64,000 nucleotides of DNA from Candidatus Woykebacteria bacterium. GTDB taxonomy: Bacteria > Patescibacteriota > Microgenomatia > Woykebacterales > RBG-16-39-9b. The position numbers and the translations under genes were made by a program. Below are positions 8,284 through 56,643 of this stretch, in pieces. Each line of letters starts with the position of its first letter. Position 1 is the stretch's first letter. A model generated the notes under the pieces. The model saw only the letters and a list, made by a program, of their open reading frames with translations. It was not told the DNA's origin and searched no databases. The DNA lies in the NCBI GenBank assembly GCA_040876345.1, contig JBBDPM010000001.1:116688-180687 (forward strand), written 5' to 3'.

Positions 8284-8284
8284 T

Positions 8285-9748: not shown

Positions 9749-9751
9749 TTT

Positions 9752-13214: not shown

Positions 13215-13680
13215 ATTGATTTATGGTAAACGCTCTAGTTTGACCAGTATTAGATTCAGTTAACGCGAAGTTATTTTGGGCACCGCTGTAGTTTTGTACC
13301 TCCCCTGAAAGTTTAGAAAAGATAATGTTACTAGAGGGTAAATTTATTGGGCTTATGGATATGCTTGGCTCAAACGTAGTTTCTAGGTTGGCTGTATCAC
13401 TTAGGTTGTAAGAAGCTCCTTTGAAAATAACGATTTTGTTTTGTTCAAAATGCACACCGTGGCTTTCGGCTGAGGAAGATCCCCCCGTGCTTCCCACCAT
13501 AGCTAGGTTTTGAGCTTCTTTAAGTGCAAAATAGATTTGGTCTTCGGCCGCTCTTATGTCGGCTTGGGATTTTGGTCTAGTGATACTCACTAATATGAAT
13601 CCAAAAGCTAAAGAAAATAGGGCGATAACTAATATAATTTCTATTAGGGTAAAGCCAGAAGACTTTAGAGATTTTCTCAT
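13192..13680 (-). CDS. Pseudopilin / minor pilin with a prepilin-type N-terminus
   Basis: SG|FTLIEIILVIALFSLAFGF motif. 162 aa. Overlaps both neighbours. Confidence 0.65.
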   Translation of the reverse strand: MRKSLKSSGFTLIEIILVIALFSLAFGFILVSITRPKSQADIRAAEDQIYFALKEAQNLAMVGSTGGSSSAESHGVHFEQNKIVIFKGASYNLSDTANLETTFEPSISISPINLPSSNIIFSKLSGEVQNYSGAQNNFALTESNTGQTRAFTINQYGRVTIN

Positions 13681-14780: not shown

Positions 14781-15049
14781 CCAAAATTATACCACTTGTG
14801 GGTGTTAAAGTAGATTCCAAAGTTTGACCCCAAACCCATAGCTATGTTATGATCAGGTACGAAATTTGTTGAAACAGCTTCGGATGGGTATTTTGTCGAC
14901 TAAGATTTAATCGCCAGTGAGCCCAATCTGAGGCCGCCGTAGGAGGGATTTCGATCAGTTTCGGGACGGTGTTACCCATGCAGCCCCAACCACATTTCCT
15001 AGTGAAGCCGTTAGTGGATCTAGGTGGGGCACCGAAAAGGAGGAAAGTG

Positions 15050-15649
15050 ATGTGGCGTACAGTAGAAGGACGAAGAGTTCTAAGGCCAACCGATAGAGAT
15101 CTTAAGCCTCGGGCAAGCAAACTCCAAGATGTCGCGAGGGTTATCAAAGGGCTAGGGTCTCCAGAATCGGTGGATATCTACGTTTCGAAGTGGCGGTTTG
15201 GTGTTACGATGCTGGGTGTTAATAGCAACATCAAAGGCGCAGTTCCCATAGGCGAGGTGGTAGAAGCTCTCAACATAGAGTTTGGGCGTGGTGAGTACCA
15301 CCAAGTAGGTGTTCAGCATGTAGGTGAATGGATTCTCTCACTTGCGACCACCTGCCCTGTCTTTTGGGCCTACACCGAGGATCGCTCTTGCTACATCGGG
15401 CGGCACGATCCGGTTGTAGCGGGGGGCACAGTGCTGTACAAGCACAGCGATGAATGCCCTTGTAGGCATCATGGAGTCAGCTGCAGCGTCCGGCCTTGCG
15501 GGGATTGCAAGGGAAGTTGTCCAATGATTCGTAAATGCACGAACTGTGGGAGTCGTTGGGATCTGAACAGGAAGCCTCCACGGCCGCTGACGCTCATTTG
15601 GACTCCGGTCCACGTTTCTAACCCCTGGTCTAGGGAGCAAGAAACGTAA
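15050..15649 (+). CDS. Hypothetical Cys-rich protein in a GC-rich (55-60% GC) island, antisense to the pilus operon
   Basis: Consensus SD (AAGGAGG, 15037-15043) lies 6 nt upstream of the ATG. The 200-codon ORF stays open across sequence at about 58% GC (chance p ~1e-3). The C-terminus has Cys pairs (CPCRHHG..CGDCKGSCP..CTNCG). The track ORF 14969-15649 includes an unlikely 5' extension. Confidence 0.45.
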   Translation: MWRTVEGRRVLRPTDRDLKPRASKLQDVARVIKGLGSPESVDIYVSKWRFGVTMLGVNSNIKGAVPIGEVVEALNIEFGRGEYHQVGVQHVGEWILSLATTCPVFWAYTEDRSCYIGRHDPVVAGGTVLYKHSDECPCRHHGVSCSVRPCGDCKGSCPMIRKCTNCGSRWDLNRKPPRPLTLIWTPVHVSNPWSREQET

Positions 15650-15716
15650 CGATTGTCGATCGTACTGGGTGGCGGTGGCAGGCTTGCCCTTCACCGCTGC
15701 CCACAGTTCTTATGTG

Positions 15717-17405
15717 TTATTCGCTTACTGCGCGGATGACTTCGCCAAGGCTTGTTTGGCCTTCGGCCACTTTTTCTAAGCCATCTTCAATCATTAGTTT
15801 AAAGCCTTCAGATTTTGCCTGATCCATTAGTTTTTGAATTGACGACTTGTCAAAAATTAGCTTGCGTAGGTCCTCACTCACCCGCAGTACTTCGTAAATC
15901 CCAACTCTTCCTCGGAAACCGGTATTTGAGCATTCTGGGCAGCCTTTTCCACGCCTTGCTTCTACTTTACCGGCCAAAAAACCGGCTACTACTTCTTCGC
16001 CGTATTCTTTAGCAAGGTCTTTAAGAACGCTTTCTTTAATCTCCTCTTTTACAAGGCAAGATGGGCAATTTCTGGCTACAAGTCGCTGCGAAATCACTAA
16101 ATTAAGGGTGGATCCAATTAGATAAGGCTGGGCTCCAAGGTCGTAAAGCCTTGGAATTGTACTGACTGCATCGTTCGTATGTAAAGAGCTCAGTACTAAA
16201 TGACCAGTTAGAGCAGCGTGAATTGCAATTTCGGAAGTTTCTTCATCGCGGATTTCTCCGACTAAAATTACGTTTGGATCATGCCTCAGGATTGCCCGAA
16301 GCCCAGAGGCAAAAGTAAGGCCAGCTTTAGGATTTATTTGGGTTTGGTTTACTCGGGGGAGTCCATATTCAATTGGATCTTCAATAGTGCAGATATTGAC
16401 ACTAGAGGTGTTGAGAATTATTAGCAGGTTGTATAGGGTTGTCGTTTTACCACTTCCCGTGGGGCCAGTTGAAAGTACCATACCATGGGATTTTTGGATG
16501 CCTTCTTTAACTAGTTTTAAGTTATTACCAGAGAGTCCAAGATCCTCCAAAGTCTTTGGTCTTGCTGCCGATGAAAGAAGCCGCATTACGGCGTCCTCAC
16601 CGTGATAGGTAGATAATATCGAGACCCTTACTGATATTTCGTCCGAGCGGTGTTTGAAGCGAAATCTACCGTCTTGGGGGAGCCGGTGCTCATCGGTGCG
16701 CAGATCTGAAATTATTTTTATCCTGGTGATTAATCCAGCCTGAATTGTGGTTGGAAGCTCTAAAACATCTCTAAGCCTGCCGTCAACCCTGAAGCGGATT
16801 ATTACTCTATCACCTACATTTTCAATGTGAATATCACTGGCTCTCTCCGATGCCGCAAAGTCTAATATTGTATCCAGGATTTTTACAACTGGAAGATCCT
16901 CACCACCGACTGCTCCTTTCGCTTTTGCTTGGGAGACGTTTTCCTCAATAATTTCCTTAAAATCCTTCCTTATATCCTTATGATATTGATCGAGGACGTC
17001 ATCTATTATTGAAGGTAGAGTGAAGTATATTTCTACTGACCCACCAACCTTTTTCTTGATAAAATCTAGGGCTTCAGGGTCTTGAGGATTTTCAAGCGCA
17101 ATTTTTACACTGTTACCATCTTTGGCAAAAGTCACCGCCCTTTTTTCAGCGGCTATCTCCTCGGGGATAAGATCTAAGATTGATTTTTCGATTTTATGGT
17201 CTTTTAGATCGGCGTAAGGGTAACCAACGTATTCGGCGATCGCTTGCCCAAGAAACTTCTCTAATATTACACCACGTTCTATTAATACATCAGTTAAGGG
17301 TTTATTTAGGTCAGAAGCAGCTTTTTCTGCCTCTTGTAGTTCGGCAGGATCAACAAATCCAGATTTTAAGATAAGCTTTTTAAGCTCATTACCTTCAATG
17401 GTCAT
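15717..17405 (-). CDS. pilB: Type IV pilus assembly ATPase PilB (GspE family)
   Basis: Walker A (STGPTGSGKTTTLY), Asp and His boxes, and a C-terminal tetracysteine motif (CPSC..CPEC). 562 aa. Confidence 0.9.
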   Translation of the reverse strand: MTIEGNELKKLILKSGFVDPAELQEAEKAASDLNKPLTDVLIERGVILEKFLGQAIAEYVGYPYADLKDHKIEKSILDLIPEEIAAEKRAVTFAKDGNSVKIALENPQDPEALDFIKKKVGGSVEIYFTLPSIIDDVLDQYHKDIRKDFKEIIEENVSQAKAKGAVGGEDLPVVKILDTILDFAASERASDIHIENVGDRVIIRFRVDGRLRDVLELPTTIQAGLITRIKIISDLRTDEHRLPQDGRFRFKHRSDEISVRVSILSTYHGEDAVMRLLSSAARPKTLEDLGLSGNNLKLVKEGIQKSHGMVLSTGPTGSGKTTTLYNLLIILNTSSVNICTIEDPIEYGLPRVNQTQINPKAGLTFASGLRAILRHDPNVILVGEIRDEETSEIAIHAALTGHLVLSSLHTNDAVSTIPRLYDLGAQPYLIGSTLNLVISQRLVARNCPSCLVKEEIKESVLKDLAKEYGEEVVAGFLAGKVEARRGKGCPECSNTGFRGRVGIYEVLRVSEDLRKLIFDKSSIQKLMDQAKSEGFKLMIEDGLEKVAEGQTSLGEVIRAVSE

Positions 17406-34695: not shown

Positions 34696-35496
34696 TTAGA
34701 TTTTAAGGTCTCTTTTTTGGAAAGAGACGATGCTGATTAGGAGAAATACCAAGGTTACAGCAATAAACACGGCCATATGTTCCAACTTTAAGCCATTCTT
34801 CAGTGGGTTATTTTCACTGTAATAGTAGGAAAGCGAAAATTTTTGATAATCTTTGAGAAAATTTACTATTGGGGAGAGGCCATATAGAAAAAAGCTAATG
34901 ACTGCTAAAGAAGCGCTTATCCCGATACCTATCGAACGGCTTCCAGTGGCAGCACTTAAAGCTAAAGAAATTGATCCAAAAGCAAGGGCAAGTAGAGACA
35001 CACTAATCATAACATCGACTATCCGCATTGGGTTAACGTCCATGCCGATTGATTGGGTTCCGATTATTAAAGAAATTGCTGTAATAGATGACAATATTGC
35101 CGTAGTTAAAATCATTAAAATAAATTTTTCGACAACTACCTGAAAGCGAGGAATAGGATTGGCCAAAAGAAGGTCCAGAGTGCCTTTATCTTCCTCACCA
35201 GCGATTGCTCCGCTGCCGGCGGCCACAGTGAAAATTATCAAGAGGGTTGGCATAAAGAAAGTAAAAAGTTCGCTGTTCAAGTATCCGGCCGGGGTGGCGT
35301 AATCAGTCGCCTCTCCAACAAATGCTCTAAGCGCTTCTGGCAAGTTCTCAAAATATGAGGTTATATTCTGAGCGCTCTCTTTAACACTAGGGTAAAAAGC
35401 GATAAGAAGAGAAACAGTAAGAATTAGTCCAATACTCCAGAACAACAAGGATATCTTTTGGTCTTTTAGATTTCTGAATATTATATTGCCAATCAT
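34696..35496 (-). CDS. ABC-2 family transporter permease
   Basis: 266 aa with 6 TM helices. Overlaps the ATPase gene by 4 nt. Confidence 0.65.
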   Translation of the reverse strand: MIGNIIFRNLKDQKISLLFWSIGLILTVSLLIAFYPSVKESAQNITSYFENLPEALRAFVGEATDYATPAGYLNSELFTFFMPTLLIIFTVAAGSGAIAGEEDKGTLDLLLANPIPRFQVVVEKFILMILTTAILSSITAISLIIGTQSIGMDVNPMRIVDVMISVSLLALAFGSISLALSAATGSRSIGIGISASLAVISFFLYGLSPIVNFLKDYQKFSLSYYYSENNPLKNGLKLEHMAVFIAVTLVFLLISIVSFQKRDLKI

Positions 35497-36392
35497 GACT
35501 TTTCTTTATCCACGTAGTAGGTGAGAAATAGCTCCTCTAAGTTTGGTTCTTGACTTATAATATTTACCACTTCATATTTCGCGATTTCCTTTACAAAAGA
35601 ATCCAGAGTTCCGACAACGGTGCAACGCAGTAGATTGCCCTCTACCCTTACGTCTTGTACACCTTCAATTTTTGAAAACTCTTCTAGTTTTGGAGCTTTA
35701 GAAAAATGAACTTCCAGGGGACGGAGGGCTTTTTCTCTTAGAGTCTCAACCCTTTCAACAATTGCAAGCTCCCCTTCGCGAATTATACCCACCCGGTCAC
35801 AAATTTTTTCTACTTCGGGGAGATTATGCGATGAGATAAAAAAAGTAGTGCCCATCCCTTTAGTCTCACTGACTAAATGGTAAAACTCGTGCTGAATAAG
35901 GGGATCGAGACCAGAGGTTGGCTCGTCTAAAATTACAAGCTTTGGTTTGTGCATGAAAGCTTGAATAAGGCCGATTTTTTGCTTGTTGCCGTGGGACATT
36001 TTTTTAATTTTCTGGTGAAGATCTACTTTCAGGCGGCTGCGTAGTTTTTCAACGTATTTCCAATCTACGCCATCTCTAAATTTTGCTAAAAACTTCAAAA
36101 TTTCTGTGCCAGTTAGGTTTTCGTACAAGCTAAGGTCTCCTGGCAAGTAGCCAACAAGCCTTTTTATTTCAACGCTATTTTTGTGAGAATCTAGACCAAA
36201 GATTTCAGTCTGACCTTGGCTTGGCCTCATAAAGTCTAGAAGAACTCGGATAGTAGTTGTTTTACCGGCACCGTTAGGGCCAAGGTAACCAAAAACTTCT
36301 CCTTGAATCACACTGAAGTTTAGGTCAACGACACCTCTTTGTTTTCCGTAGGATTTTGTGAGGCCCTTTACTTTGATCGCGTCATCTGCCAT
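35493..36392 (-). CDS. ABC transporter ATP-binding protein
   Basis: Walker A GPNGAGKTT, a signature-like motif (SHGNKQK), Walker B LVILDEPTSGLD, and an H-loop. Confidence 0.85.
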   Translation of the reverse strand: MADDAIKVKGLTKSYGKQRGVVDLNFSVIQGEVFGYLGPNGAGKTTTIRVLLDFMRPSQGQTEIFGLDSHKNSVEIKRLVGYLPGDLSLYENLTGTEILKFLAKFRDGVDWKYVEKLRSRLKVDLHQKIKKMSHGNKQKIGLIQAFMHKPKLVILDEPTSGLDPLIQHEFYHLVSETKGMGTTFFISSHNLPEVEKICDRVGIIREGELAIVERVETLREKALRPLEVHFSKAPKLEEFSKIEGVQDVRVEGNLLRCTVVGTLDSFVKEIAKYEVVNIISQEPNLEELFLTYYVDKEKS

Positions 36393-46133: not shown

Positions 46134-46382
46134 ATGAAAGTTACTATTTACACAACTACCACGTGCCCGTACTGCAAGATGGAAAAAGATTACTTTGATG
46201 AGAAGGGCGTGAAGTACGAAAATGTCTTTGTTGATCAAGATGCGAAGAAGGCCCAAGAGATGATGGAGCTTTCCGGACAACTTGGGGTGCCCTTTACAGT
46301 GATTGAAAAAGATGACGGTTCCGAAGAAAAAATTCTTGGGTTCGACAAGGAAAAATTAAACTTAGCATTAAATTTATCGTAA
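46134..46382 (+). CDS. Glutaredoxin-like protein (NrdH/Grx fold)
   Basis: CPYC redox motif in an 82-aa thioredoxin-fold protein. Confidence 0.7.
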   Translation: MKVTIYTTTTCPYCKMEKDYFDEKGVKYENVFVDQDAKKAQEMMELSGQLGVPFTVIEKDDGSEEKILGFDKEKLNLALNLS

Positions 46383-46414
46383 TTTCCAAAAGTTTACACT
46401 AACCGAGTTGACGT

Positions 46415-47044
46415 ATGGGTAAAAAACCAGATGTTTCTGAGCTTTCTAAAAAAGAGAGAAAAGAATTTCTTAAAGACTTTAGGAAATCTGAAGAGCAAAG
46501 GGATAAAGTTAAATCAAACGTTACAAAAATAGTAATAGCAGTCGTGATGTTGGCAGTTTTAGGAGGGTTGGGTTACTTATTTTTGACAGCCGATCAAGGC
46601 TCAGCCGTTATGGGGGAAGAGATAACAATCCAGAGCAGAGACCATATTAATCCGGGAACGCCCCATCCAAGTTATAATTCAAATCCACCAACCTCCGGCC
46701 CACATTGGCCAACCCCTCAGACTTGTGATATATACAATGAGCCAGTGGCAGATGAATCTGCGATCCACAGCTTAGAGCACGGGGCCGTTTGGATAACTTA
46801 CAAAGACAAGGACGATACGGATCTCGCCGGAAAATTGAAAGCTATTGTCGAAAAAAACAAAGCTAAAGTGCTTCTTTCACCAAGGCCGGAAAATGATTCC
46901 AAGATTGCTCTTTCCTCTTGGGGAAGGCTTATGAAGCTCTCTGATTTTGATGAAAATCAAATCAGCCAATTTATAAAATCAAACCGGAACAATTCTCCAG
47001 AGCCTCTTGCTGCTTGCCAAGGCACCAACCAAACTCGACAATGA
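46415..47044 (+). CDS. DUF3105-domain membrane-anchored protein
   Basis: TM helix, then ..PPTSGPHWP..SLEHGAVWITY.. matching the DUF3105 conserved core. Confidence 0.5.
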   Translation: MGKKPDVSELSKKERKEFLKDFRKSEEQRDKVKSNVTKIVIAVVMLAVLGGLGYLFLTADQGSAVMGEEITIQSRDHINPGTPHPSYNSNPPTSGPHWPTPQTCDIYNEPVADESAIHSLEHGAVWITYKDKDDTDLAGKLKAIVEKNKAKVLLSPRPENDSKIALSSWGRLMKLSDFDENQISQFIKSNRNNSPEPLAACQGTNQTRQ

Positions 47045-48108
47045 TTTTAGATAATATCGAAGAAATAAAAAAACTAGATAAAAAACAAGTTGCTCTCTCA
47101 ATCGAGAGACTACCAGATCAGTTGGAGCAAGCATGGCTTGAGGCCTTAAGCGTAAGTTTCCCGGACTCCTACAAACAAGTAAAAAACATTTTGGTCGATG
47201 GAATGGGTGGGTCTGGGCTTGGCCCAGAGATCGTAAACACTGTTTTTAAAGACAAAATCAACGTGCCGATGACTTTGATTCACGATTATCACTTGCCTGC
47301 TTTTGTCGATGGAGACACGCTAGTTTTGATCTCCAGTTACTCAGGAAATACCGAGGAGCCCCTAAATGCTGGAGAAGAGGCACTAGCTAAAAACTACAAA
47401 GTTGCCGGTATAACGGAAGGCGGAAAACTAGCCGAGTTTCTAAAGGTCAACAAGCTCCCTGGATTTGTTTTTAATGCTCCGTATAACCCATCACATCAGC
47501 CGCGTCTTGGTCTTGGCTACCAAGTCGGTGGGATTTTAGGGATGTTTAGGTCACTGGGATTTATAAATATAAGTGATGAAGAAATGGACAGAGTTCTGTT
47601 TTGTAGTCGGGAGCTGAATCAAAAACTATCTCCGGGCTCCCCAACTTCAGAAAACTTCGCTAAGGAACTCGCCACAAAAATTCAGGGAAATATTGTCGTA
47701 GTAATAGCTGCCGAGCCCTTATCTGCTAACGCCCATGTTTTTGCAAATCACCTAAATGAAACTTCAAAGACTTTCTCAACCTACTTTATAATTCCGGAGC
47801 TTAACCATCATCTTTTGGAAGGGTTAAATAAGCCGGCTGGTTTAGGGGAAAGGCTCAAAGTGATTGTACTTGAATCCGATCTTTATTCAGACAAAATTAA
47901 AAAAAGAGTTCAAATCACTAAGGATATAATTGAAAAGCAAAAAATCGAGACTATCTCGGTTAAAATTGAGGGTGACACGGCTCTCATTCAAGCGTTTGAG
48001 GCCCTTTTAGTAAGTTCCTGGACGACGTTTTACTTAGCAATCTTGAATGGATTCGATCCGTCCGAAATTCCTTGGGTGGATTATTTCAAAGAACAACTAG
48101 CAAAATAA
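47014..48108 (+). CDS. Bifunctional phosphoglucose/phosphomannose isomerase (SIS-domain, archaeal-type PGI/PMI)
   Basis: SIS-domain pattern (GMGGSGLG, SYSGNTEE) with the C-terminal bact-PGI_C-like region. The start may be the internal Met at 47041. Confidence 0.7.
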   Translation: MPRHQPNSTMILDNIEEIKKLDKKQVALSIERLPDQLEQAWLEALSVSFPDSYKQVKNILVDGMGGSGLGPEIVNTVFKDKINVPMTLIHDYHLPAFVDGDTLVLISSYSGNTEEPLNAGEEALAKNYKVAGITEGGKLAEFLKVNKLPGFVFNAPYNPSHQPRLGLGYQVGGILGMFRSLGFINISDEEMDRVLFCSRELNQKLSPGSPTSENFAKELATKIQGNIVVVIAAEPLSANAHVFANHLNETSKTFSTYFIIPELNHHLLEGLNKPAGLGERLKVIVLESDLYSDKIKKRVQITKDIIEKQKIETISVKIEGDTALIQAFEALLVSSWTTFYLAILNGFDPSEIPWVDYFKEQLAK

Positions 48109-48148
48109 ATTTCCTCGGAAATAGTGACTTATCTGTTAAACTACAATT

Positions 48149-49108
48149 ATGGATAAAATCTACGATGTAATAATTGCGGGCTCAGGTCCTGCTGGTTTGA
48201 CAGCCGCAATTTATGCCTCCCGATCTAATCTTAAAACGCTGGTTATAACAGGAGTCGATGTTGGTGGCCAACTCATTTGGACTACGGATGTTGAGGACTA
48301 TCCTGGTTTCCCGGATGGAATTCAAGGTCCAGAACTCATGGAAAAGATGAAAAAACAGGCTGAGAGACTGGGGGCCGATTTTACAGGTGGCGATGTCAAA
48401 AAAGTCGATTTTGGTAAGAGGCCTTTTAAAGTTCAATCTGAGGAAGGAGAATTTTTAGCCAAAACTTTTATAGTAGCAACTGGTGCTAGTGCCCAGTGGC
48501 TCGGGATAGAGAGCGAGCAGCGTTTGCGGGGCCGGGGTGTTTCTGCCTGTGCTGTTTGTGATGGTGCTTTCTTCAAAGGTAAGAATCTTGCGGTTATTGG
48601 CGGTGGTGACACGGCTCTTCGGGAGGCTATTTTCTTAACAAAGTTTTCGCCAAAAGTTTACGTGGTTCACCGTAGAGAAGAACTGCGAGCGTTTAAAGCC
48701 TTGCAGGATAGAGCTTTTGCAAACAAAGCGATTGAGTTTGTTTGGAATAGTGAGGTAAAAGAAGTGCTGGGGGAGCCCAAAGTTGCGGGAGTCAAGATTT
48801 TTGATAACAAAACTAGAAAAGAAAGAGAGATGGATGTTGAAGGGGTGTTTGTGGCTATTGGGCATAAACCAAACACAGAGTTTTTAAGAGGTGAAATAGA
48901 GTTGGACAATAGAGGTTATGTGGTGTTGAAAGGAACAAGTCAGACTACTATTCCCGGAGTTTTTGCAGCCGGTGACGTACATGATTGGCATTATCAGCAA
49001 GCGGTAACTGCAGCCGGAGCCGGCTGTATGGCCGCCCTTGATGCAGAGGAATATCTTGAGGAAGAAAAAACAACGGAAAAAATCTCCTCAAAAGCCTCTC
49101 AACCTTGA
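48149..49108 (+). CDS. trxB: Thioredoxin reductase
   Basis: FAD motif GSGPAGLTAA, redox-active CAVCDG, NADPH motif GGGDTA. Confidence 0.9.
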   Translation: MDKIYDVIIAGSGPAGLTAAIYASRSNLKTLVITGVDVGGQLIWTTDVEDYPGFPDGIQGPELMEKMKKQAERLGADFTGGDVKKVDFGKRPFKVQSEEGEFLAKTFIVATGASAQWLGIESEQRLRGRGVSACAVCDGAFFKGKNLAVIGGGDTALREAIFLTKFSPKVYVVHRREELRAFKALQDRAFANKAIEFVWNSEVKEVLGEPKVAGVKIFDNKTRKEREMDVEGVFVAIGHKPNTEFLRGEIELDNRGYVVLKGTSQTTIPGVFAAGDVHDWHYQQAVTAAGAGCMAALDAEEYLEEEKTTEKISSKASQP

Positions 49109-49119: not shown

Positions 49120-49156
49120 TTGACAGACCCTAGATGTTGGTATTAACATGGATATT
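49120..49156 (+). promoter_or_regulatory. Candidate sigma70 promoter of nrdR-nrdJ (-35 TTGACA, weak -10)
   Basis: Perfect TTGACA at 49120-49125. A TATTAA / TAACAT -10 candidate follows 15-18 nt downstream. Confidence 0.3.
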
Positions 49157-49159
49157 GTA

Positions 49160-49173
49160 CCCAATATCTAGTG
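49160..49173 (+). promoter_or_regulatory. Candidate NrdR box
   Basis: CCCAATATCTAGTG matches the NrdR-box palindrome core (CACwATATaTwGTG) at 12 of 14 positions. It sits just downstream of the putative -10. Confidence 0.35.
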
Positions 49174-49335
49174 CTTGTTAGGTTTCCACCCGTGGAAACT
49201 CTGAAAAGTAATAACACCCTTCTTTACCACAACAAGGGCAAGATAGATGGGTTCTTAGATCTTTAACCTCTTTAATTAAATCAGCACGAGGACAGCGTTT
49301 GGTATATTCTTGTGCCTTAAAAATCAGGAGAGTTT

Positions 49336-49818
49336 ATGAAGTGTCCGTATTGTTCAAATTTTGATACTGCCGTGATGGACTCGCGTGACAGCGAGGATCT
49401 TGGCTCCATTCGCCGCCGCCGGGAGTGCTTGAAATGCAGTAAGCGTTTCACCACCTATGAGCGGATTGAAATGATCGACTTAGCTATTTTGAAAAAAGAC
49501 GGTAGAAGAGAGAATTTTGATCGAAACAAGCTGCTTTTGGGTTTTAAAAAAGCCACGGAAAAGCGGCCCGTAAGCTTAGAAGATATTGATAATGCTGTGG
49601 ATGCGATTGAGAGGGAATTGCGAAGAAAAGATAGTACGGAGATTCCAAGTACCGTGGTTGGTGAGATTGTGATGAGAAAGCTCAAGGCCTTGGACAAAGT
49701 AGCTTACATCCGCTTCGCCAGTGTCTATCGAAGTTTTGAGGATGTTGCGTCTTTTGAAAAAGAAATCAAGAGCCTTTTAAATAAGACTGGTAGTAAGAAG
49801 GCCGTAACAACTAATTAA
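49336..49818 (+). CDS. nrdR: Transcriptional repressor NrdR
   Basis: N-terminal zinc ribbon (CPYC..CLKC) and an ATP-cone domain. 160 aa. Confidence 0.9.
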   Translation: MKCPYCSNFDTAVMDSRDSEDLGSIRRRRECLKCSKRFTTYERIEMIDLAILKKDGRRENFDRNKLLLGFKKATEKRPVSLEDIDNAVDAIERELRRKDSTEIPSTVVGEIVMRKLKALDKVAYIRFASVYRSFEDVASFEKEIKSLLNKTGSKKAVTTN

Positions 49819-49839
49819 AATAAAAGGAGGATTCTGCTC

Positions 49840-52347
49840 ATGGCTAAAGTAAAAACAACTCAGCGGATAGCGACAAAGGAAGGATTTCGATTTAATCCAA
49901 AACTTCAAGTTGAGCTCGAAAGTTTAGTTGGTGATAGCGCCCAAACTACTTTGGAAGGAGTCCGCCAAACAGTTTTTCGTGATCGCTATTCTTTGAAAGA
50001 CGCTGAGGGCGCTTCTATCGAAGAGCACCCTGAGCAGATGTGGAAAAGGGTTGCGGCTGGCATCGCTCAGGTAGAAAAGGCCTCTCCAAAACAAAAAGAA
50101 TGGACCGAGAAATTTTATGGAGCTCTCAAGGATTTCAAATTTGTCCCCGGTGGTAGAATCCTCTCGGGCGCCGGCACACCTTACGAAGTAACTTTCTATA
50201 ACTGTTTTGTAATTCCCTCGCCTCATGATTCCCGAGACGGAATAATTGATAACTTGAAAATAATGGTGGATATTATGTCAAGGAGCGGTGGAGTTGGAAT
50301 AAACCTCTCTTCCTTACGCCCTCGGGGCGCCCGGGTCAAAAAAGTAAACGGTACGAGCTCCGGGCCAGTAAATTGGGCCGAGCTTTACTCCACAGCCACT
50401 CACGATGTTATCCAGCAAGGTGGTACTCGTCGTGGAGCCTTGATGCTGATGATTAATGATTGGCATCCAGATGTTGAGGAGTTTATCGAGGTTAAGAAAG
50501 ACCTTTCCCGCATCAATGGTGCAAACCTTTCCGTCTGTGTTTCCGATGCTTTCATGGAAGCTGTTAAGAAAAATGGAGATTGGCAACTAGCCTTCCCGGA
50601 TATTTCAGATCCCGAGTACGATAAAGTTTGGGATGGAGACATCGATAAATGGAAGAGCCTTGGGAAGAAGGTTAATGTCTACCGAACAGTTAAGGCAGCT
50701 GAAGTCTGGGACAAGATTTGCCACGCTGCTTGGGCGTCAGCTGAGCCAGGCCTTCACTTTATCGACAGAAGCAATAACCGTAGCAATACTTGGTATTTTG
50801 AAAAACTAATCTCCACTAACCCTTGCGGCGAGCAACCACTTGGAGCCTGGGCGGTTTGCAATCTAGCATCCGTGAGCTTGCCCGCTTTCGTCGAAAATGG
50901 GGAAATGAATTACCAGAAGCTTTACGAGAATGTAAAAGTGGCCATCCGCTTTATGGATAACGTAATTGAGGCAACCGGTTACTATTACGATGAAAACAAA
51001 AAGCAGCAAGAAGGAATCCGCCGGGTCGGGCTCTCAGGGATGGGTTTAGGAGACGCTCTTATTCTCCTTAAGCAAAGATACGGATCAAAAGAAGCGGAGC
51101 CGACAGTTGAGAAAATTTACAAAACTATAAGAGACGCTGCTTATGAGTCATCGGCTGAGCTTGCGGCCGAAAAAGGGGCTTTCCCCAATTTTGACAAAGA
51201 AAAATATCTGCAAGGGCATTTCATCAAAAAACTTCCGGAGAGAATCAAAGAGAAAATTCGCAAAAACGGTATTCGTAACGCAGTGCTGTTGACGCAAGCA
51301 CCAACTGGTACTACTTCCCTTGTTTCGGGAGTCTCCTCTGGAATTGAGCCAGTTTATGATTTTGCCATGACCCGAAGGGACCGCACTGGAGAACACATGA
51401 TTTACCACCCGCTTTATCAAAAATGGCTGGAGGATAATCCTGGGAAAGAACCACCGGAATATTTTGTTTCGGCCAATGATTTGACTCCTGAGGAGCACGT
51501 GCGGATGCAAGCAATTGTTCAGGAATACACGGATTCTTCAATCTCCAAGACAGTCAATGCTCCGGAGACCCACAGTGTGGAAGATGTCAAACAGCTCTAT
51601 ACACTAGCGTATGAGCTTGGTTGTAAAGGAATTACTTACATGAGGGATGGATCTCGTGAAGGAGTACTCTCGCACGGTACTGAGACCAAGAAAGAAACAG
51701 CCGAGGCTGGTAACGGCCATAGCGCTGAGCAGGTGCCCGTTCACCTTCGCAAGAGACCAAATTATCTAAATGGAATTACAAGAAGAATTCAAACTCCAGT
51801 GGGGCACGCTTTTGTTACCATCAATGAAGATGAGAATAGGAATCCGTTTGAAGTATTCGTTAATGTCGGCAAGGCCGGAAGTGATATAACCGCCGATGCT
51901 GAGGCTATTGGTCGTTTGATATCTTTGGCCCTTCGCATTCCAACCGGCTACTCGTCCAAAGAAGTCGCCCAACAAGTGGTCAATCAACTCACCGGAATTG
52001 GTGGTAGCCGCCAGCAGGGGTTTGGGCCCAACCGTGTCCACTCTTTGGGAGATGCCATATCTAAAGTTCTCGCCGAGTACTTGGGGTCCGAGAGCACCTA
52101 TCCAGAAGTTGAGCTTAATGGAAATGGCCATGCAAAGCCAAATGGAAACGGCAAGACAGTTAGCGTAGAACAGCCCGAAGTCAAAGAAACTCCCCAAGTA
52201 ATTGACCCGCCTCAGGATGTTTCGCAGTCGACTGCCCTACATCTTGATACCGCCAGGCGCGACATGTGCCCAAAATGCGGAGTCGCCAGTTTCGTCTACG
52301 AAGAGGGCTGCAAGAAGTGTTACAGTTGTGGACACTCGGAGTGCTAA
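49840..52347 (+). CDS. nrdJ: Class II (adenosylcobalamin-dependent) ribonucleotide reductase
   Basis: 835 aa. RNR barrel motifs (NCFV, GGTRRGALM, NPCGEQPL), no adjacent NrdB or NrdD/G, and a C-terminal zinc ribbon (CPKCG..CKKCYSCG) as in monomeric/dimeric NrdJ. Confidence 0.8.
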   Translation: MAKVKTTQRIATKEGFRFNPKLQVELESLVGDSAQTTLEGVRQTVFRDRYSLKDAEGASIEEHPEQMWKRVAAGIAQVEKASPKQKEWTEKFYGALKDFKFVPGGRILSGAGTPYEVTFYNCFVIPSPHDSRDGIIDNLKIMVDIMSRSGGVGINLSSLRPRGARVKKVNGTSSGPVNWAELYSTATHDVIQQGGTRRGALMLMINDWHPDVEEFIEVKKDLSRINGANLSVCVSDAFMEAVKKNGDWQLAFPDISDPEYDKVWDGDIDKWKSLGKKVNVYRTVKAAEVWDKICHAAWASAEPGLHFIDRSNNRSNTWYFEKLISTNPCGEQPLGAWAVCNLASVSLPAFVENGEMNYQKLYENVKVAIRFMDNVIEATGYYYDENKKQQEGIRRVGLSGMGLGDALILLKQRYGSKEAEPTVEKIYKTIRDAAYESSAELAAEKGAFPNFDKEKYLQGHFIKKLPERIKEKIRKNGIRNAVLLTQAPTGTTSLVSGVSSGIEPVYDFAMTRRDRTGEHMIYHPLYQKWLEDNPGKEPPEYFVSANDLTPEEHVRMQAIVQEYTDSSISKTVNAPETHSVEDVKQLYTLAYELGCKGITYMRDGSREGVLSHGTETKKETAEAGNGHSAEQVPVHLRKRPNYLNGITRRIQTPVGHAFVTINEDENRNPFEVFVNVGKAGSDITADAEAIGRLISLALRIPTGYSSKEVAQQVVNQLTGIGGSRQQGFGPNRVHSLGDAISKVLAEYLGSESTYPEVELNGNGHAKPNGNGKTVSVEQPEVKETPQVIDPPQDVSQSTALHLDTARRDMCPKCGVASFVYEEGCKKCYSCGHSEC

Positions 52348-52348
52348 A

Positions 52349-52732
52349 ATGAAGATCAAGATACTTAGTGTAGAAGAGTTTGAGATTTTTGATAAACTTG
52401 GAACCACGGAAAGGTTCGAACTCAGTTCACCTTTTAAATCTGTAACCAAGCCGCCATCAGCAATTACAATTGGTTTGAGATCGGCTGTTTCAGGAACCGC
52501 TACCTATGCAGAAGCTAAATTTTATCGGATTGGAGATGAAAGAGATTTAAAACAGGGTGTCTTGATAAACGTGGATACGTATAGAGCTTGGCCGCACAGT
52601 AGATTAATTGAAGGTCCTATAAAAGACGTTGATCACCACATGTATACTTATAAGAATTTTGAAGAATTCCTAGATAAATTAAGGTTGTTGGAAGAGCAAA
52701 GACAAAGGAAGATGCTTGACAACAAGCTTTAG
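52349..52732 (+). CDS. Hypothetical protein
   Basis: ATG overlaps the nrdJ stop. 127 aa. The track's 5' extension into nrdJ is rejected. Confidence 0.4.
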   Translation: MKIKILSVEEFEIFDKLGTTERFELSSPFKSVTKPPSAITIGLRSAVSGTATYAEAKFYRIGDERDLKQGVLINVDTYRAWPHSRLIEGPIKDVDHHMYTYKNFEEFLDKLRLLEEQRQRKMLDNKL

Positions 52733-52773
52733 GAAATTGTAGAGTAGTCATACTTTAAAAATTTATCCGACGT

Positions 52774-52865
52774 CCGCCAGCTGGCGGAGCGGAGTCAGAA
52801 GCTCCGAAGTCTGTGAAACTCAGACACTGTGCCGCAACCGTTAAAGTCGGGTCGAAGGCTTCTGA
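52774..52865 (+). promoter_or_regulatory. Structured 5' leader, candidate cobalamin-riboswitch-like aptamer
   Basis: Perfect palindrome CCGCCAGCTGGCGG. Hairpins GGAGC..GCTCC and GTCTG-UGAAACU-CAGAC. A long-range 8-bp pairing UCAGAAGC/GCUUCUGA. The segment GCCGCAACCGUUAAAGUCGGG resembles the conserved CCGCcACUGUAAG core. No canonical B12 box was seen. Confidence 0.3.
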
Positions 52866-52898
52866 TTTAACATGCTTCGAGCAAAGTTAAGTTTTTGA

Positions 52899-52927
52899 AA
52901 CCTTCTTTTAGCTCGAGAAGGTTTTTT
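52899..52927 (+). terminator. Intrinsic terminator / attenuator (8-bp stem plus a 6-U tract) inside the leader
   Basis: AACCTTCT-tttagctcg-AGAAGGTT followed by TTTTTT. Confidence 0.55.
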
Positions 52928-52931
52928 GGTG

Positions 52932-52959
52932 GCCTTCTTTGCTTGCAAGTAAAGAAGGC
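52932..52959 (+). promoter_or_regulatory. RBS-sequestering hairpin immediately upstream of the DUF4430 gene
   Basis: GCCTTCTTT-gcttgcaagt-AAAGAAGGC. The right arm contains the SD AAAGAAGG, 5 nt before the ATG at 52963. Confidence 0.45.
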
Positions 52960-52962
52960 TTT

Positions 52963-53598
52963 ATGTTTTTAAAACTAAAAAATCTTCTGCAGAAAAAATT
53001 CATTTTGATTTTTGCGCTCGTGTTTGCCACTGCTCTTTTGGTGGCACCAAAGTTTTTAGCAGATAAACAGGAATCTAATCCCCAATCATCAAAGACTGAG
53101 GTTAGTGACCAAACTGATTTCGAAGAGGCTCTTACTAATCAAACCGATATTACATCAGTTGATCACGAAAATCCTAAGGAGCAAGTAGGTGGTTCTAAAA
53201 AGATCCAAGGGACCACTACCCAACAAACAACAAAGTCGAACAATACACCAACCACAAAAAAACCCACCTCATCTTCGCAGGCATCTGTCATACAAGAAAT
53301 TGCCCTGAATATTAATACTGGCAGCGCAAATTATTCTTATTCAGTTGCTCGGGCAAAGAGTATGACTGTATATGATGTTTTAGTTAAAGCAAGCAACGAA
53401 AATAAATTCTCGCTTGTTTCCAGTTGGTACGGAGCACCTTTGAATAGCCAATACATTATCGAAATCCACGGTTTCAATTGCGGGTGTTGGACATACACCC
53501 TCAAAGATAAATACGGTGTAAAAGTTCCTGGCTCAGGGGAAGGTGCGTCTTTAGACACCGTGAAACCTGGAAATATTATTATTTGGAAAACAACCTAA
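52963..53598 (+). CDS. Secreted DUF4430-domain protein (transcobalamin / intrinsic-factor beta-domain-like), putative corrinoid-binding
   Basis: ATG start with SD (the track's TTG 52939 start is rejected). Signal peptide/TM, Thr/Gln-rich linker, then ..YSVARAKSMTVYDVLVKAS..GAPLNSQYIIEIHG..CGCWTY.. fitting DUF4430. Confidence 0.5.
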   Translation: MFLKLKNLLQKKFILIFALVFATALLVAPKFLADKQESNPQSSKTEVSDQTDFEEALTNQTDITSVDHENPKEQVGGSKKIQGTTTQQTTKSNNTPTTKKPTSSSQASVIQEIALNINTGSANYSYSVARAKSMTVYDVLVKASNENKFSLVSSWYGAPLNSQYIIEIHGFNCGCWTYTLKDKYGVKVPGSGEGASLDTVKPGNIIIWKTT

Positions 53599-53609
53599 AG
53601 GAGGTAAAC

Positions 53610-54878
53610 ATGTCTAAAAAATTTAAAATATTATCTGCACTTACAACAAGTAGTTTGGTCGCAGGGTCGTTGCTGCCAATGACTATCTTTGCAGTTACCC
53701 CAGATATGAGTAGCAATATAAATTCTGCCGTAGATTATTTAAAATCGCAGCAGGAAACATCAGGAAAGATTTCGGGCTTTGGGACGGAAACCTCGTGGGC
53801 GATTATGGGTTTTGCTGCGGCAGGAATTGACCCTGAAACAATTGAAACAAATGGAAACTCCTTAGTTGACTATATTAGAGCAAATCCCCCAGCAAGCTCC
53901 ACCCCAACTGCCTGGGAGCGAGATATATTGGCAATAACAGCTGCTGGTGAAAATCCTTACAATTTTGGTGGGACAAACTACATAAAGACACTTGAGTCTT
54001 TTGCAGCTGGCGGGCAACTTGGAGGTAATACACTTCTCAATGATGATACTTTCGGAGTACTCGCCTTGATTTCGGCCGGACCATCTGCTGATCAACAGAT
54101 AATTTCAGATTCGGTTAACTTTATTATCGCCAATCAAAACGCTGATGGAGGATTGAGTTGGTCCACCTCAGGTGATAGTGATACGAACGATACCGCCATT
54201 GCAATCATGGCCCTGAACGCTGCCAAAAGCGCCGGTTTTACAAATGTTGGGTTAGGTACAAGCTTGGATGAGGCTAAAAATTATATGCTCACATCCCAAA
54301 ATCCCGATGGTGGTTGGTCCTTTACACCAGGGGACACATCAGACGCCTCCTCCACCGCTTGGGGCATTCAAGCAATGCTTGGAGATGATATGGTAGTTAG
54401 TAATGCTTTAAATTTTCTTGTCAGCCTTCAGAATCTGGACGGTTCTGTTAGCTGGATGAGTGGGTTTGGTGGGGACACTTTTACAAGTGCCTATGCGCTC
54501 TCTGCTTTTGCCCAGAGAGCTTTTCCGGTTGGAGCCTTTACCCAAGAGTTTCCGGGTGATCCGGGTCAAGTGCCGGGTAACCAGGACCCTCAAGACGGTG
54601 AAGAAGAGAACCCAAGAGACTCAGATGATGACGGTGATGTTCTTTCAGCAACCGATACTAACGATGATGGAAAAGTGTTGGCAGCTACTTTACCAGACAC
54701 TGGTATCGCTTATGAGCCGAAGTCTATGGTAAGAGCTCTTGATCAACCTTTCGGGAGTCAAAAAGATTCTAGATTGCGCTTCTTTGGATTATTTCTTGCT
54801 TTGGGCAGCAGTTCTGCTCTGGCTGGAGTCTCTCTTCGATGTGTCTATAAGAAGCTAGTTGAATATGATATAAACTAA
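53610..54878 (+). CDS. Surface protein with alpha/alpha-toroid prenyltransferase/squalene-oxidase (QxxDGGW) repeats and a C-terminal LPxTG-like sorting signal
   Basis: SD AAAGGAGG before the ATG at 53610. Signal peptide. Repeats QNADGGLSWS, QNPDGGWSF, QNLDGSVSW. An acidic linker, then LPDTG, a hydrophobic segment, and RCVYKK. Confidence 0.6.
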   Translation: MSKKFKILSALTTSSLVAGSLLPMTIFAVTPDMSSNINSAVDYLKSQQETSGKISGFGTETSWAIMGFAAAGIDPETIETNGNSLVDYIRANPPASSTPTAWERDILAITAAGENPYNFGGTNYIKTLESFAAGGQLGGNTLLNDDTFGVLALISAGPSADQQIISDSVNFIIANQNADGGLSWSTSGDSDTNDTAIAIMALNAAKSAGFTNVGLGTSLDEAKNYMLTSQNPDGGWSFTPGDTSDASSTAWGIQAMLGDDMVVSNALNFLVSLQNLDGSVSWMSGFGGDTFTSAYALSAFAQRAFPVGAFTQEFPGDPGQVPGNQDPQDGEEENPRDSDDDGDVLSATDTNDDGKVLAATLPDTGIAYEPKSMVRALDQPFGSQKDSRLRFFGLFLALGSSSALAGVSLRCVYKKLVEYDIN

Positions 54879-54882
54879 CAAA

Positions 54883-55482
54883 ATGAGAAAATTTATTGAG
54901 TTAGCAGCAAGTTCAGCATTAATAATTGGGTCTGCAGTCGGTCTTAGACTTATACCGCATATGCCAAACTTTGCTCCAGTTGGGGCAATGGCTCTTTTTG
55001 GCGGTGCTTATCTGCCTAGAAAATACGCTCTATTGGCTCTATTTGCAGTGATGCTGGTCTCCGATTATCTACTTCTCTACTTTCACCCCTTCTCGGCGGA
55101 TCTAGTTGATTTTTCTAGGTTCTATGGACCATCCAGCCTTATTCATTCGACGACAGTTTTTGTCTACGTAAGTTTCTTCATTAATTTCCTAATCGGCCGT
55201 TGGATTGCTCGGAAAAGATCAGTTGAAAGAGTGGCAGCTGGGGCATTGGCAGCGTCAATTCAATTTTTCATTGTTACAAACTTTGGTGTCTGGGTTGCTG
55301 GTGGCTACTCTAGATATCTCTACGGGCTTTTGCAAAGCTACATTATGGCCTTGCCATTTTTCCGGGGGACACTTTTTGGAGACCTTTTTTACACAGGGCT
55401 TTTCTTTGGCAGTTATGAGGTGGTAAAATCTCTAATTGTTAGAAGAAGTTTGGCTCATAAGGAGGCTAAAGTTTATGGCTAA
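54883..55482 (+). CDS. ECF-transporter S-component-like membrane protein (solitary)
   Basis: The N-terminal ALIIGSAVGLRLIPHMPNFAPVGAMALFGGAYL matches the ECF S-component (PF12822-like) start. 5-6 TM helices, 199 aa. Confidence 0.45.
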   Translation: MRKFIELAASSALIIGSAVGLRLIPHMPNFAPVGAMALFGGAYLPRKYALLALFAVMLVSDYLLLYFHPFSADLVDFSRFYGPSSLIHSTTVFVYVSFFINFLIGRWIARKRSVERVAAGALAASIQFFIVTNFGVWVAGGYSRYLYGLLQSYIMALPFFRGTLFGDLFYTGLFFGSYEVVKSLIVRRSLAHKEAKVYG

Positions 55483-55717
55483 ATCAGAGGAGACCTTTAA
55501 AGTTCGTGGGGAAGACGTAATTAAGAAAGTTAAAGAACTTATTAAAGAAGGCAACGTCCGAAAGATTACTATAAAAGACAAAGCTGGCAAAACCATTGCT
55601 GAGTTTCCCCTGACTATCGGAGTTCTTGGCACTTTGATCGCCCCAATCTTGGCAGCAGTTGGGGCAATTGCTGCTCTAGTGGCTGAATGCACGATTGCAG
55701 TTGAGCGTAGAGAATGA
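55475..55717 (+). CDS. DUF4342-domain protein
   Basis: SD AAGGAGG before the ATG at 55475. Pattern VRGEDVIKKVKELIKEGNVRKITIKDKAGKTIAEFPLTIGVLG..AAVGAIAALV typical of DUF4342. Confidence 0.55.
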   Translation: MAKSEETFKVRGEDVIKKVKELIKEGNVRKITIKDKAGKTIAEFPLTIGVLGTLIAPILAAVGAIAALVAECTIAVERRE

Positions 55718-56643
55718 GGATTGTTTCCACTCTTCCGACTGCCACCGAAATCATTTATCAGCTAGGATTAGGATCTAGCTTGGTTGGTGTTTCCCACGAA
55801 TGCAACTACCCTAAAGAAGCTTCTAAAAAACCCAGAGTTTCCAAGGTTGATTTTGATTACGGCACTGCTGCATCTTCCGAAATTGACGACTATGTTGGTG
55901 AAAAGATGCACAATCACCATAGTCTTTATCAGCTAAAGGACGAATTGGTTACCGCTCTTGCCCCAACCCATTTAATTACTCAAAAACTTTGTGATGTGTG
56001 TGCTGTTACACCAAACGATGTTCAGAGAGTTATTAAGTCACTAACAGAAAAACCAGAACTAATAACTTTAAATCCAACAAACCTCGAAGAAATCCTTAAA
56101 GATATTCTAATGGTCGGCTCTTCCTTGGGTCGGGGCAAGGAAGCTATCGAACTGGTAGAGAAATTGCGGTCAAAGATTGAACAAATAAAACTTAAAACTC
56201 ATAAGCTTCAGCGTAAAACTATCTTTTGCGTTGAATGGATCGATCCGCCGTATGCATCAGGACATTGGATACCGGAAATGGTTGATATTGCTGGCGGATC
56301 CGAAGTTCTCGGTTGGAAGGGGAAGCCCTCCCGAAAGGTTAGCTGGGAGGATGTGCTAAAAGCCGATCCAGAAATTTTGGTTTTTATGCCCTGTGGCTTT
56401 TCACTAGAGAAAACAATATTGGAAATTCGAAACTGCTTGTCTAAAGATTCAGCGTTCAGGAGTCTTAGGGCTATTAGAAATATTCAGGTTTGGGTCGTGG
56501 ATGGACCAAGTTACTTTAATCAATCAGGACCTCGAGTGCTTGCCAAAGGAGTTGAGATCCTTGCCAAAATAATCCACCCTGAGGTTTTTGAATCTCCAAC
56601 AAAAGCTGAAGCAACAAAACTTTCCTCAACTTACTTTCTCTAA
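55714..56643 (+). CDS. BtuF-like cobalamin / class III periplasmic-binding-protein fold protein, with no signal peptide
   Basis: RIVSTLPTATEIIYQLGLGSSLVGVSHECNYP aligns with the BtuF N-terminus ([30 protein letters not shown]). The C-terminal ..GPRVLAKGVEILAKII matches ..SPRIILAAQQL. It starts directly at MRIV with no leader peptide. Confidence 0.55.
   Translation: MRIVSTLPTATEIIYQLGLGSSLVGVSHECNYPKEASKKPRVSKVDFDYGTAASSEIDDYVGEKMHNHHSLYQLKDELVTALAPTHLITQKLCDVCAVTPNDVQRVIKSLTEKPELITLNPTNLEEILKDILMVGSSLGRGKEAIELVEKLRSKIEQIKLKTHKLQRKTIFCVEWIDPPYASGHWIPEMVDIAGGSEVLGWKGKPSRKVSWEDVLKADPEILVFMPCGFSLEKTILEIRNCLSKDSAFRSLRAIRNIQVWVVDGPSYFNQSGPRVLAKGVEILAKIIHPEVFESPTKAEATKLSSTYFL

Follow-up and report, generated by a model that had tools for sequence, protein, structure and literature searches.

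The 64,000-nucleotide stretch of Candidatus Woykebacteria DNA analysed here (contig JBBDPM010000001.1, positions 116,688 to 180,687; hereafter the window) probably contains a corrinoid uptake operon of five genes directly downstream of nrdR and the class II ribonucleotide reductase (RNR) gene nrdJ. The operon would be controlled by a cobalamin (vitamin B12) riboswitch and would have as its translocator a membrane protein of family DUF6580 with a BtuM-like predicted fold, a reading to which, as a whole, a probability of about 0.7 is assigned. The region would consist of two linked units, nrdR-nrdJ-orfX and the uptake operon, the second of which begins about 50 nt past the end of the first, and the open reading frames (ORFs) follow one another on the forward strand as nrdR, nrdJ, orfX, a gap of 230 nt and five packed or overlapping genes (52963–56643). 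The initial annotation had proposed a dedicated, non-canonical corrinoid acquisition locus after nrdJ, and this proposal is borne out by the riboswitch, the BtuM-like predicted fold, a recurrent gene order and the gene context in Bacteroidota and Ignavibacteria. All eight ORFs of the region are present on the forward strand at their coordinates; orfX (52349–52732) and the riboswitch had been overlooked. The contig is metagenome-assembled and measures 469 kb, and the products of genes 1, 3 and 5 are identical to NCBI proteins of this organism. The features of the second unit are the following.

52716–52745, forward strand: promoter-like site TTGACA-18-TAGAGT ahead of the riboswitch (consensus scan only)
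52785–52874 (Rfam core 52795–52865), forward strand: cobalamin riboswitch aptamer, AdoCbl-II type (RF01689, covariation)
52897–52930 (stem 52897–52925), forward strand: intrinsic-terminator hairpin and T-run, candidate OFF element (RNA fold)
52931–52960, forward strand: 13-bp hairpin sequestering the Shine-Dalgarno sequence of gene 1 (terminator scan, fold)
52963–53598, forward strand: gene 1 (p4), putative divergent SLBB/DUF4430 (transcobalamin beta-domain-like) module (profile, position)
53610–54878, forward strand: gene 2 (p5), secreted, C-terminally anchored alpha/alpha toroid (PF13243, PF13249, PF00432)
54883–55482, forward strand: gene 3 (p6), DUF6580 membrane protein of BtuM-like ECF-S-component fold (predicted), candidate corrinoid translocator (PF20221)
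55475–55717, forward strand: gene 4 (p7), DUF4342 protein of 80 amino acids with a hydrophobic C-terminal stretch (PF14242)
55714–56643, forward strand: gene 5 (p8), Peripla_BP_2 protein (BtuF/IsdE-type fold) with no signal peptide (PF01497)

In the proposed mechanism, the SLBB protein (gene 1) and the toroid (gene 2), each tethered to the membrane, would hold a corrinoid between them on the cell surface as a "split transcobalamin", modelled on the beta and alpha domains of transcobalamin. The corrinoid would then be passed to DUF6580, a BtuM-like solitary S-component, for transport through the single membrane, in which probably no dedicated ATPase takes part. In the cytoplasm, the cysteine-rich gene 5 protein of periplasmic binding protein (PBP) fold may take the cofactor, perhaps together with DUF4342, and this trapping would give uptake its direction. 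Once adenosylated, the cofactor would serve NrdJ, while plentiful cobalamin would shut the operon through the riboswitch. Tool results provide the assignments of domains and folds, the riboswitch and the synteny, and from these we infer every step of binding, hand-over and transport; the individual hand-overs, especially the roles given to genes 4 and 5, deserve much less confidence than the operon as a whole.

Cobalamin riboswitch and leader

The aptamer lies directly 5' of gene 1, with the terminator and the hairpin that sequesters the ribosome-binding site as its expression platform. It is matched by RF01689, a member of the Rfam clan of cobalamin riboswitches (CL00101), with 34.8 bits (E = 2.5e-5 on 8 kb). 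Rfam at gathering thresholds gave no match in the whole window, and the element surfaced with E-value thresholds. This borderline score is made solid by relatives at the same position, covariation, the matches of a dedicated covariance model and an independent Rfam run. RF01689 scores above gathering at the same position in five of the loci fetched for comparison (designated L001 onwards), namely L001 (39.3 bits), L019 (53.0), L032 (40.4), L027 (39.1) and L022 (36.6), and sub-threshold elements occupy that position in L003 (RF01482, 47.6 against 50) and L004 (29.1 bits). Compensatory changes were found in 7 of the 18 pairs of a four-sequence alignment, and the covariance model built from these four elements, run on 84 DUF6580-bearing sources (the window and 83 fetched loci), gave 53 matches, of which 52 are on the DUF6580 strand. 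When 34 sequences were aligned, pairing holds in 94% of the cells and both partners change in 15 of 18 pairs, a level of covariation reached by none of 500 shuffles and far above that of slid controls. The classical Cobalamin riboswitch, RF00174, was identified at Rfam gathering thresholds in L055 and L057 (82 and 75 bits).

The terminator hairpin has a stem of 11 bp followed by the T-run (fold of 52780–52975; z-score of the leader −3.3), and the Shine-Dalgarno sequence of gene 1, AAGAAGG (52952–52958), is buried in the 13-bp hairpin. As both hairpins follow the aptamer, we infer that cobalamin most likely turns the operon off at transcription as well as translation. Promoter-like sites are no more numerous in the region than in shuffles.

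The DUF6580 membrane protein

Gene 3 is a member of PF20221 (DUF6580; 4e-47, 160.9 bits against a gathering score of 27), a family that Pfam lists as of unknown function and NCBI names "putative transport protein". It had first been described as an energy-coupling factor (ECF) S-component-like protein of PF12822; the S-component fold is retained as a prediction but the family is different, since at E≤10 gene 3 matches PF20221 only and neither PF12822 nor any other S-component family of Pfam. The predicted structure has the six-helix S-component fold and is nearest to BtuM, all S-components taken from ECF complexes being more distant. Two residues are invariant in DUF6580, His26 in loop 1 and His88 between helices 3 and 4. 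The family occurs in the Candidate Phyla Radiation (CPR), Chloroflexota, Bacteroidota, Ignavibacteriota, Acidobacteriota and Planctomycetota, and it is regarded here as a candidate corrinoid translocator.

Transporter and RNR genes of the window were surveyed by reading the translations by eye, with an ABC-motif regular expression, with a NrdJ profile and with Pfam searches of 10 unrecognised ORFs. As had been stated before, btuCD and ECF A/T genes were not seen among the ORFs of the 64-kb window by this reading and these partial scans, nor were cob/cbi genes. The regular expression matched none of the window ORFs, and the sole ABC ATPase recognised by eye in the window (35493–36392) is paired with an ORF of six transmembrane (TM) segments (34696–35496).

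Comparative gene context

A DUF6580 profile scan of species-representative genomes confirmed more than 579 loci; 80 of these were fetched, and gene contexts were counted in 84 non-redundant DUF6580 loci mapped with home-made profiles and the riboswitch model. An SLBB gene stands immediately beside DUF6580 in 54 of the 84, a toroid gene is present as well in 18, a riboswitch lies within 3.5 kb upstream on the same strand in 38, and nrdJ is directly upstream on the same strand in 30, usually preceded by nrdR. An ABC-ATPase-like ORF within 4 kb of DUF6580 was found in 4 of the 84 loci only. About 30 loci share the order nrdR-nrdJ-riboswitch-SLBB-(toroid)-DUF6580; they come from Levybacteria, Woykebacteria, Saccharibacteria, Parcubacteria, unclassified Patescibacteria and other CPR-type bins. 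As this order is spread over many CPR lineages, the recurrence exceeds synteny among close kin. The conservation of the block next to nrdJ, which had been named as a check in related genomes, holds for this core, with DUF4342 and the PBP present only sporadically.

Two operons of this kind occur in the complete 915-kb genome OZ246414.1. The one beside nrdJ (L001) has the order riboswitch-DUF4430-DUF6580-DUF4342, the other, elsewhere in the genome (L004), the order riboswitch-gene-1-like-toroid-DUF6580-PBP, and the operon of the window looks like the union of the two. Loci of Bacteroidota and Ignavibacteria have a Cobalamin riboswitch first, then a TonB-dependent receptor gene and then DUF6580, the same btuB-linked setting from which BtuM was first predicted (PMC6072759). 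The B12-dependent methionine synthase gene metH follows DUF6580 in L068 and L084.

A PduO-type adenosyltransferase gene (L033:10492-11055; TIGR00636, above cutoff) comes immediately after DUF6580, and a Levybacteria locus (L030:7289-9146) carries CobS-, CobC- and CobT-like genes, all below the NCBIfam cutoffs, behind a second riboswitch. Both suggest that corrinoids, once scavenged, are remodelled and adenosylated by some CPR bacteria. In many CPR loci a second cobalamin riboswitch is located just 3' of DUF6580 and precedes Pfam-negative proteins of 360–600 amino acids that are loosely related to one another (L031:11306-12391, L036:11104-12231, L049:10680-11858, L025:11262-12557, L030:5990-7288, L015:7213-8856 and L033:8426-9940). 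This family would be another member of the CPR B12 regulon and has no homologue in the window. Rfam also matched a group I intron (83 bits, L019:14215-14418, Patescibacteria) and a DUF3800-II RNA (68 bits, L010:5761-5827).

The SLBB-like and toroid proteins

Gene 1 encodes an N-terminal hydrophobic signal or anchor, a low-complexity linker rich in Ser, Thr and Gln, and a conserved C-terminal domain of about 100 amino acids in which His169 and a CxC motif (Cys173, Cys175) are invariant; export and anchor signals, here and below, were read from the sequences by eye, with no predictor. Its start, ATG 52963, was placed by the conserved MFxKxKN N-terminus of its homologues, and the family consists of only 10 clusters. 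Direct sequence search of gene 1 against the PDB gave no match. By hhalign, the C-terminal domain aligns with the DUF4430 proteins of other loci with a probability of 72% (E = 3.5e-5, 80 columns), and iterated hidden Markov models (HMMs) of the gene 1 and DUF4430 families converge on the same 63 ORFs (the window protein at 1.5e-19), a convergence to which the anchor and linker may contribute by contamination. Pfam-positive DUF4430 proteins hold the position of gene 1 in L001, L016 and L018. Taken together, these results provide moderate evidence that the C-terminal domain is a divergent SLBB domain.

Gene 2, whose ATG (53610) is preceded by the strong Shine-Dalgarno sequence AAGGAGGT, was correctly recognised at the outset as an alpha/alpha-toroid surface protein. 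Its prenyltransferase/squalene-cyclase Pfam matches lie just above gathering (PF13243 30.9/26.1, PF13249 29.0/26.2, PF00432 29.1/26.5), and a signal peptide, an LPDTG motif that is kept in L003 and L004, a C-terminal TM segment and a basic tail are also present. A toroid profile of 15 homologues matches PDB chains of class II terpene cyclases at 3e-27. The general-acid motif DxDD of these cyclases reads DTND in gene 2 (SDxNDTA in most of 18 homologues), so a binding module is more probable here than an enzyme. Gene 2 was also considered as an active terpene cyclase, which was rejected on the DTND motif and the extracellular location, and as a sequence-level homologue of Cobalamin_bind, which was dropped because PF01122 does not match gene 2 and the toroid profile did not reach transcobalamin.

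The toroid and the SLBB protein might instead have an envelope or enzymatic role, such as terpenoid or glycan chemistry or adhesion, and be merely co-transcribed with a B12 transporter. The only PDB sequence relatives of the toroid are class II terpene cyclases and prenyltransferase beta subunits, and gene 1, with no Pfam domain of its own, has a weak fold match to transcobalamin, both of which agree with such a role. However, besides the altered DxDD motif, an extracellular toroid has no obvious isoprenoid substrate, the SLBB-toroid pair lies between a B12 riboswitch and DUF6580 in 18 loci, and in L006 and L061 an SLBB (DUF4430) domain and a toroid are fused in one protein at the same position, as in transcobalamin. 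An envelope role is thus very improbable, and the two proteins are treated here as the surface part of the corrinoid uptake operon.

DUF4342 and the PBP-fold protein

Gene 4, which overlaps the ends of genes 3 and 5, is a DUF4342 protein as first annotated (PF14242, 5.9e-27, 94 bits against a gathering score of 25) and has no NCBIfam match. L001, its near-duplicate L002 and L032 likewise have DUF4342 after DUF6580.

Gene 5 is translationally coupled to the operon, and its product, named "cobalamin-binding protein" by NCBI, belongs to PF01497 (2.7e-21). Its PDB matches include 5ysc ("Vitamin B12-binding protein") and E. coli BtuF, weakly, as well as haem and iron-siderophore binders. It had been taken for a BtuF-like binding protein of a capture system; the PF01497 assignment stands, but the score for the BtuF equivalog NF002894 is 41 bits against a cutoff of 234, and neither signal peptide nor lipobox is found in any of 13 aligned members (the window protein and 12 bacterial and archaeal homologues, which are 41–67% identical to it over the full length). 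The ORF of gene 5 opens at the first residue of the mature fold, with no possible upstream extension. As export signals are missing across the family, gene 5 is most likely cytoplasmic, and its candidacy as an extracellular capture protein was rejected on that ground; corrinoid binding is a candidate role. Four cysteines (C30, C93, C96, C227) and three histidines (H28, H184, H288) are invariant in the family. No BtuC or BtuD gene stands beside gene 5 in the operon, and none was seen in the window. A PBP of this type adjoins DUF6580 in L004 and L075, which come from distant phyla, and methylmalonyl-CoA mutase in L085 (PBP at 5001–5918). The context of the PBP family is otherwise mixed, with this one B12 mutase neighbour and two uninformative loci.

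The signal-less PBP family (homologues P0131-P0250) extends from archaea to Chlamydiae at 41–50% identity with its four invariant cysteines, and some members carry a C-terminal Cys-rich DUF5522 domain (PF17653). A similar small Cys-rich ORF occurs after a riboswitch-regulated gene of unknown function in L025 (12527–12754). A Dph6-like ATP pyrophosphatase gene (PF01902) adjoins DUF6580 in a CPR bacterium (L004:10481-12093), a metagenome-assembled genome (MAG) of Ignavibacteriae (L075:8213-9963) and a Bryobacterales MAG (L076:10811-11485), and the signal-less PBP is present in the first two as well.

The ribonucleotide reductase unit

The first unit contains the following features.

49120–49178, forward strand: promoter-like site TTGACA-18-TAACAT with two overlapping NrdR-box-like palindromes (promoter scan, inverted repeat)
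49336–49818, forward strand: nrdR, RNR-gene transcriptional repressor with Zn-ribbon and ATP-cone (TIGR00244)
49840–52347, forward strand: nrdJ, class II RNR with C-terminal TSCPD domain and Cys-rich tail (TIGR02504)
52349–52732, forward strand: orfX, orphan ORF of 127 amino acids that starts one base past the nrdJ stop (ORF call)

nrdR matches TIGR00244 (2.8e-59, 199 bits against a cutoff of 125) together with PF22811 and PF03477, and nrdJ matches TIGR02504 (NrdJ_Z, 568 bits against a cutoff of 400) together with PF02867, PF00317 and PF12637, with 342.5 against 341 for the class I model TIGR02506. The flanks of nrdJ are nrdR and orfX, with no NrdB/F or NrdG gene alongside, and nrdJ is, judged by its sequence, an adenosylcobalamin-requiring class II enzyme. 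It was the only match of the NrdJ profile in the window, where no second RNR-like ORF was seen, in line with the earlier view that this class II enzyme appears to be the only RNR there.

The palindromes 5' of nrdR (about 49127–49142 and 49160–49175) are imperfect, with centres about 33 bp apart, and coincide with an inverted repeat, I1, with arms at 49123–49140 and 49161–49178. They resemble NrdR boxes by the known box consensus, and their position over the promoter-like site would fit autoregulation of nrdR-nrdJ. The terminator scan found none in the interval from nrdJ to the riboswitch, so that transcripts begun at the NrdR-controlled promoter may run on into the operon, a second input that is speculative.

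orfX has no Pfam or NCBIfam match (Pfam gave nothing useful even at E≤10), and a search of 1.84 billion representative proteins gave only 5 relatives. The slot that it fills after nrdJ and ahead of the riboswitch is variable, with an HNH endonuclease gene there in L001 (9013–9306) and two small ORFs in L003.

Directly 5' of nrdR-nrdJ, genes for a glutaredoxin-like protein, DUF3105, PGI and thioredoxin reductase (46134–49108; named by eye) stand in the order that they have, by Pfam, in L001:2610-5572 and L003:3013-5935. These genes may encode suppliers of reductant for RNR.

Points against the operon reading and alternative ligands or energy sources

Several observations weigh against a corrinoid uptake operon of the proposed kind. 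The riboswitch of the window lies 1.7 bits below the RF01689 gathering score of 36.5, and lacks one internal helix of the Rfam model. Gene 1 has no Pfam match, PF14478 included, even at E≤10, so that what was called a secreted DUF4430 protein is retained as a divergent relative on profile, fold and positional evidence. The PDB matches of the toroid profile at E≤10 include no chain of transcobalamin, intrinsic factor or haptocorrin. Gene 3 matched no PDB sequence at E≤10, BtuM included, either by phmmer or with a profile of 26 DUF6580 sequences; no cysteine is conserved among 26 DUF6580 homologues, and Cys80, the essential ligand of BtuM, has no counterpart, a role for which His26 and/or His88 may substitute. 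DUF4342 occurs in only 4 (counting the near-duplicate L002) and the PBP in only 3 of 85 fetched loci, and both are sporadic accessories. The adjacency of nrdJ among close CPR kin is partly general synteny, which inflates its count.

Genes of S-components that share an ECF module are often far from the module, and the scarcity of ATPase genes near DUF6580 is therefore no proof of ATP-independence, which is a further point of the same kind. DUF6580 could then be an ordinary S-component that docks on a shared EcfAA'T encoded elsewhere, with ATP-driven uptake as in ECF-CbrT. This appears unlikely, with the predicted structure nearer to the solitary BtuM than to any S-component of an ECF complex.

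The ligand might also be something other than complete cobalamin, such as cobinamide or incomplete corrinoids, a lower ligand, or another tetrapyrrole or a metal, with the riboswitch tying expression to B12 status. The CobS-, CobC- and CobT-like genes behind the second riboswitch of L030, the haem and iron-siderophore binders among the PDB relatives of the PBP, the binding of cobinamide by BtuM itself (PMC6072759) and the suggestion that SLBB proteins of archaea may be scavengers of a distinct metabolite (Burroughs et al., PMC1796856) all point in this direction. On the other hand, no corrinoid remodelling genes are found among the window ORFs scanned or read, the neighbouring consumer NrdJ needs complete adenosylcobamide, and riboswitch-controlled transporters normally import the sensed ligand or its precursor. 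A different ligand is accordingly quite improbable, and uptake of cobalamin through DUF6580 remains the preferred reading.

A wider proposition joins several of these points. DUF6580 would be a broad family of ECF-independent, histidine-using cobalamin transporters, and in CPR bacteria a three-stage line of split transcobalamin, DUF6580 and cytoplasmic PBP acceptor or chaperone, with DUF4342 as an accessory, would receive read-through from nrdJ and be gated by the riboswitch; the PBPs without signal peptide, which range from archaea to Chlamydiae, would represent an unrecognised intracellular B12 chaperone. All these parts together are tentative and rather doubtful.

Other features of the window

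On the reverse strand, 7786–17405 holds a type IV pilus/pseudopilin-like cluster recognised by eye only, with pilin-like N-termini, a platform-like ORF of six TM segments and a 562-residue ORF resembling PilB-type ATPases. A response regulator and a histidine kinase, also named by eye, adjoin it.

Implications

CPR bacteria are thought to depend on their neighbours for cofactors. How B12 is imported by single-membrane and ultra-small bacteria is largely unknown, and the locus suggests a scavenging route for such bacteria, in which B12 scavenging would be linked directly to the synthesis of DNA precursors. Together with its 80-odd relatives it provides a concrete proposal for the function of DUF6580, of the divergent SLBB family of gene 1 and of the signal-less "cobalamin-binding" PBP family. 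Should DUF6580 prove to be a B12 transporter, it would have to be counted in when B12 auxotrophy and cross-feeding are predicted from the genomes of groundwater, soil and gut communities.

Comparison with known systems

Two elements of the proposal are already known, the prediction that bacterial surface proteins with SLBB and toroid domains scavenge B12 (Burroughs et al. 2007, PMC1796856) and the uptake of B12 by BtuM, a solitary S-component that works without an ECF module (PMC6072759). The link of DUF6580 to B12, the split-transcobalamin pairing, the signal-less PBP family and the systematic placement after nrdJ in CPR bacteria are not described in the literature searched, which returned nothing on DUF6580, PF20221, PF14478, PF14242, DUF4342 or "BtuF-like" and no relevant paper on CPR and B12.

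DUF6580 resembles BtuM of Thiobacillus denitrificans (PDB 6FFV, 8OVV) in its predicted fold and in its genomic link to B12, through the riboswitch, the TonB receptor and B12 enzymes. It differs in that it forms a separate Pfam family (PF20221) with no HMMER-detectable sequence similarity, and in that the cobalt ligand of BtuM is Cys80 in loop 3, whereas DUF6580 has the invariant His26 and His88 instead. BtuM is reported mostly from Proteobacteria (131 hits; PMC6072759), while DUF6580 is found in broad taxa and more than 579 loci. ECF-CbrT of Lactobacillus likewise has a membrane protein of S-component fold (for DUF6580, a predicted fold) for B12 uptake in a single-membrane bacterium, but no EcfT/EcfA genes are linked to DUF6580, which is structurally nearer to BtuM.

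Gene 5 shares the Peripla_BP_2 fold with BtuF and the other cluster-A binders (IsdE, haem and siderophore proteins), with weak matches to BtuF chains and 5ysc. In contrast to BtuF, gene 5 has no nearby btuCD, and its family has no export signal (13 of 13) and four invariant cysteines, with members found alone or beside cytoplasmic B12 enzymes.

The surface pair is comparable with transcobalamin, intrinsic factor and haptocorrin and with the SLBB-toroid proteins of 2007, but in the window the two domains are on separate polypeptides, each of them membrane-tethered. The toroid is terpene-cyclase-like by sequence and not a PF01122 protein like the transcobalamin alpha domain, and gene 1 is not matched by the Pfam DUF4430 model and has an invariant His and CxC. 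CbiO/CbiQ-type partner genes were described for the 2007 systems, whereas the partner in the window is DUF6580. The pair encoded by genes 1 and 2 is thus proposed as a bacterial two-chain counterpart of transcobalamin and offered as such for structural study.

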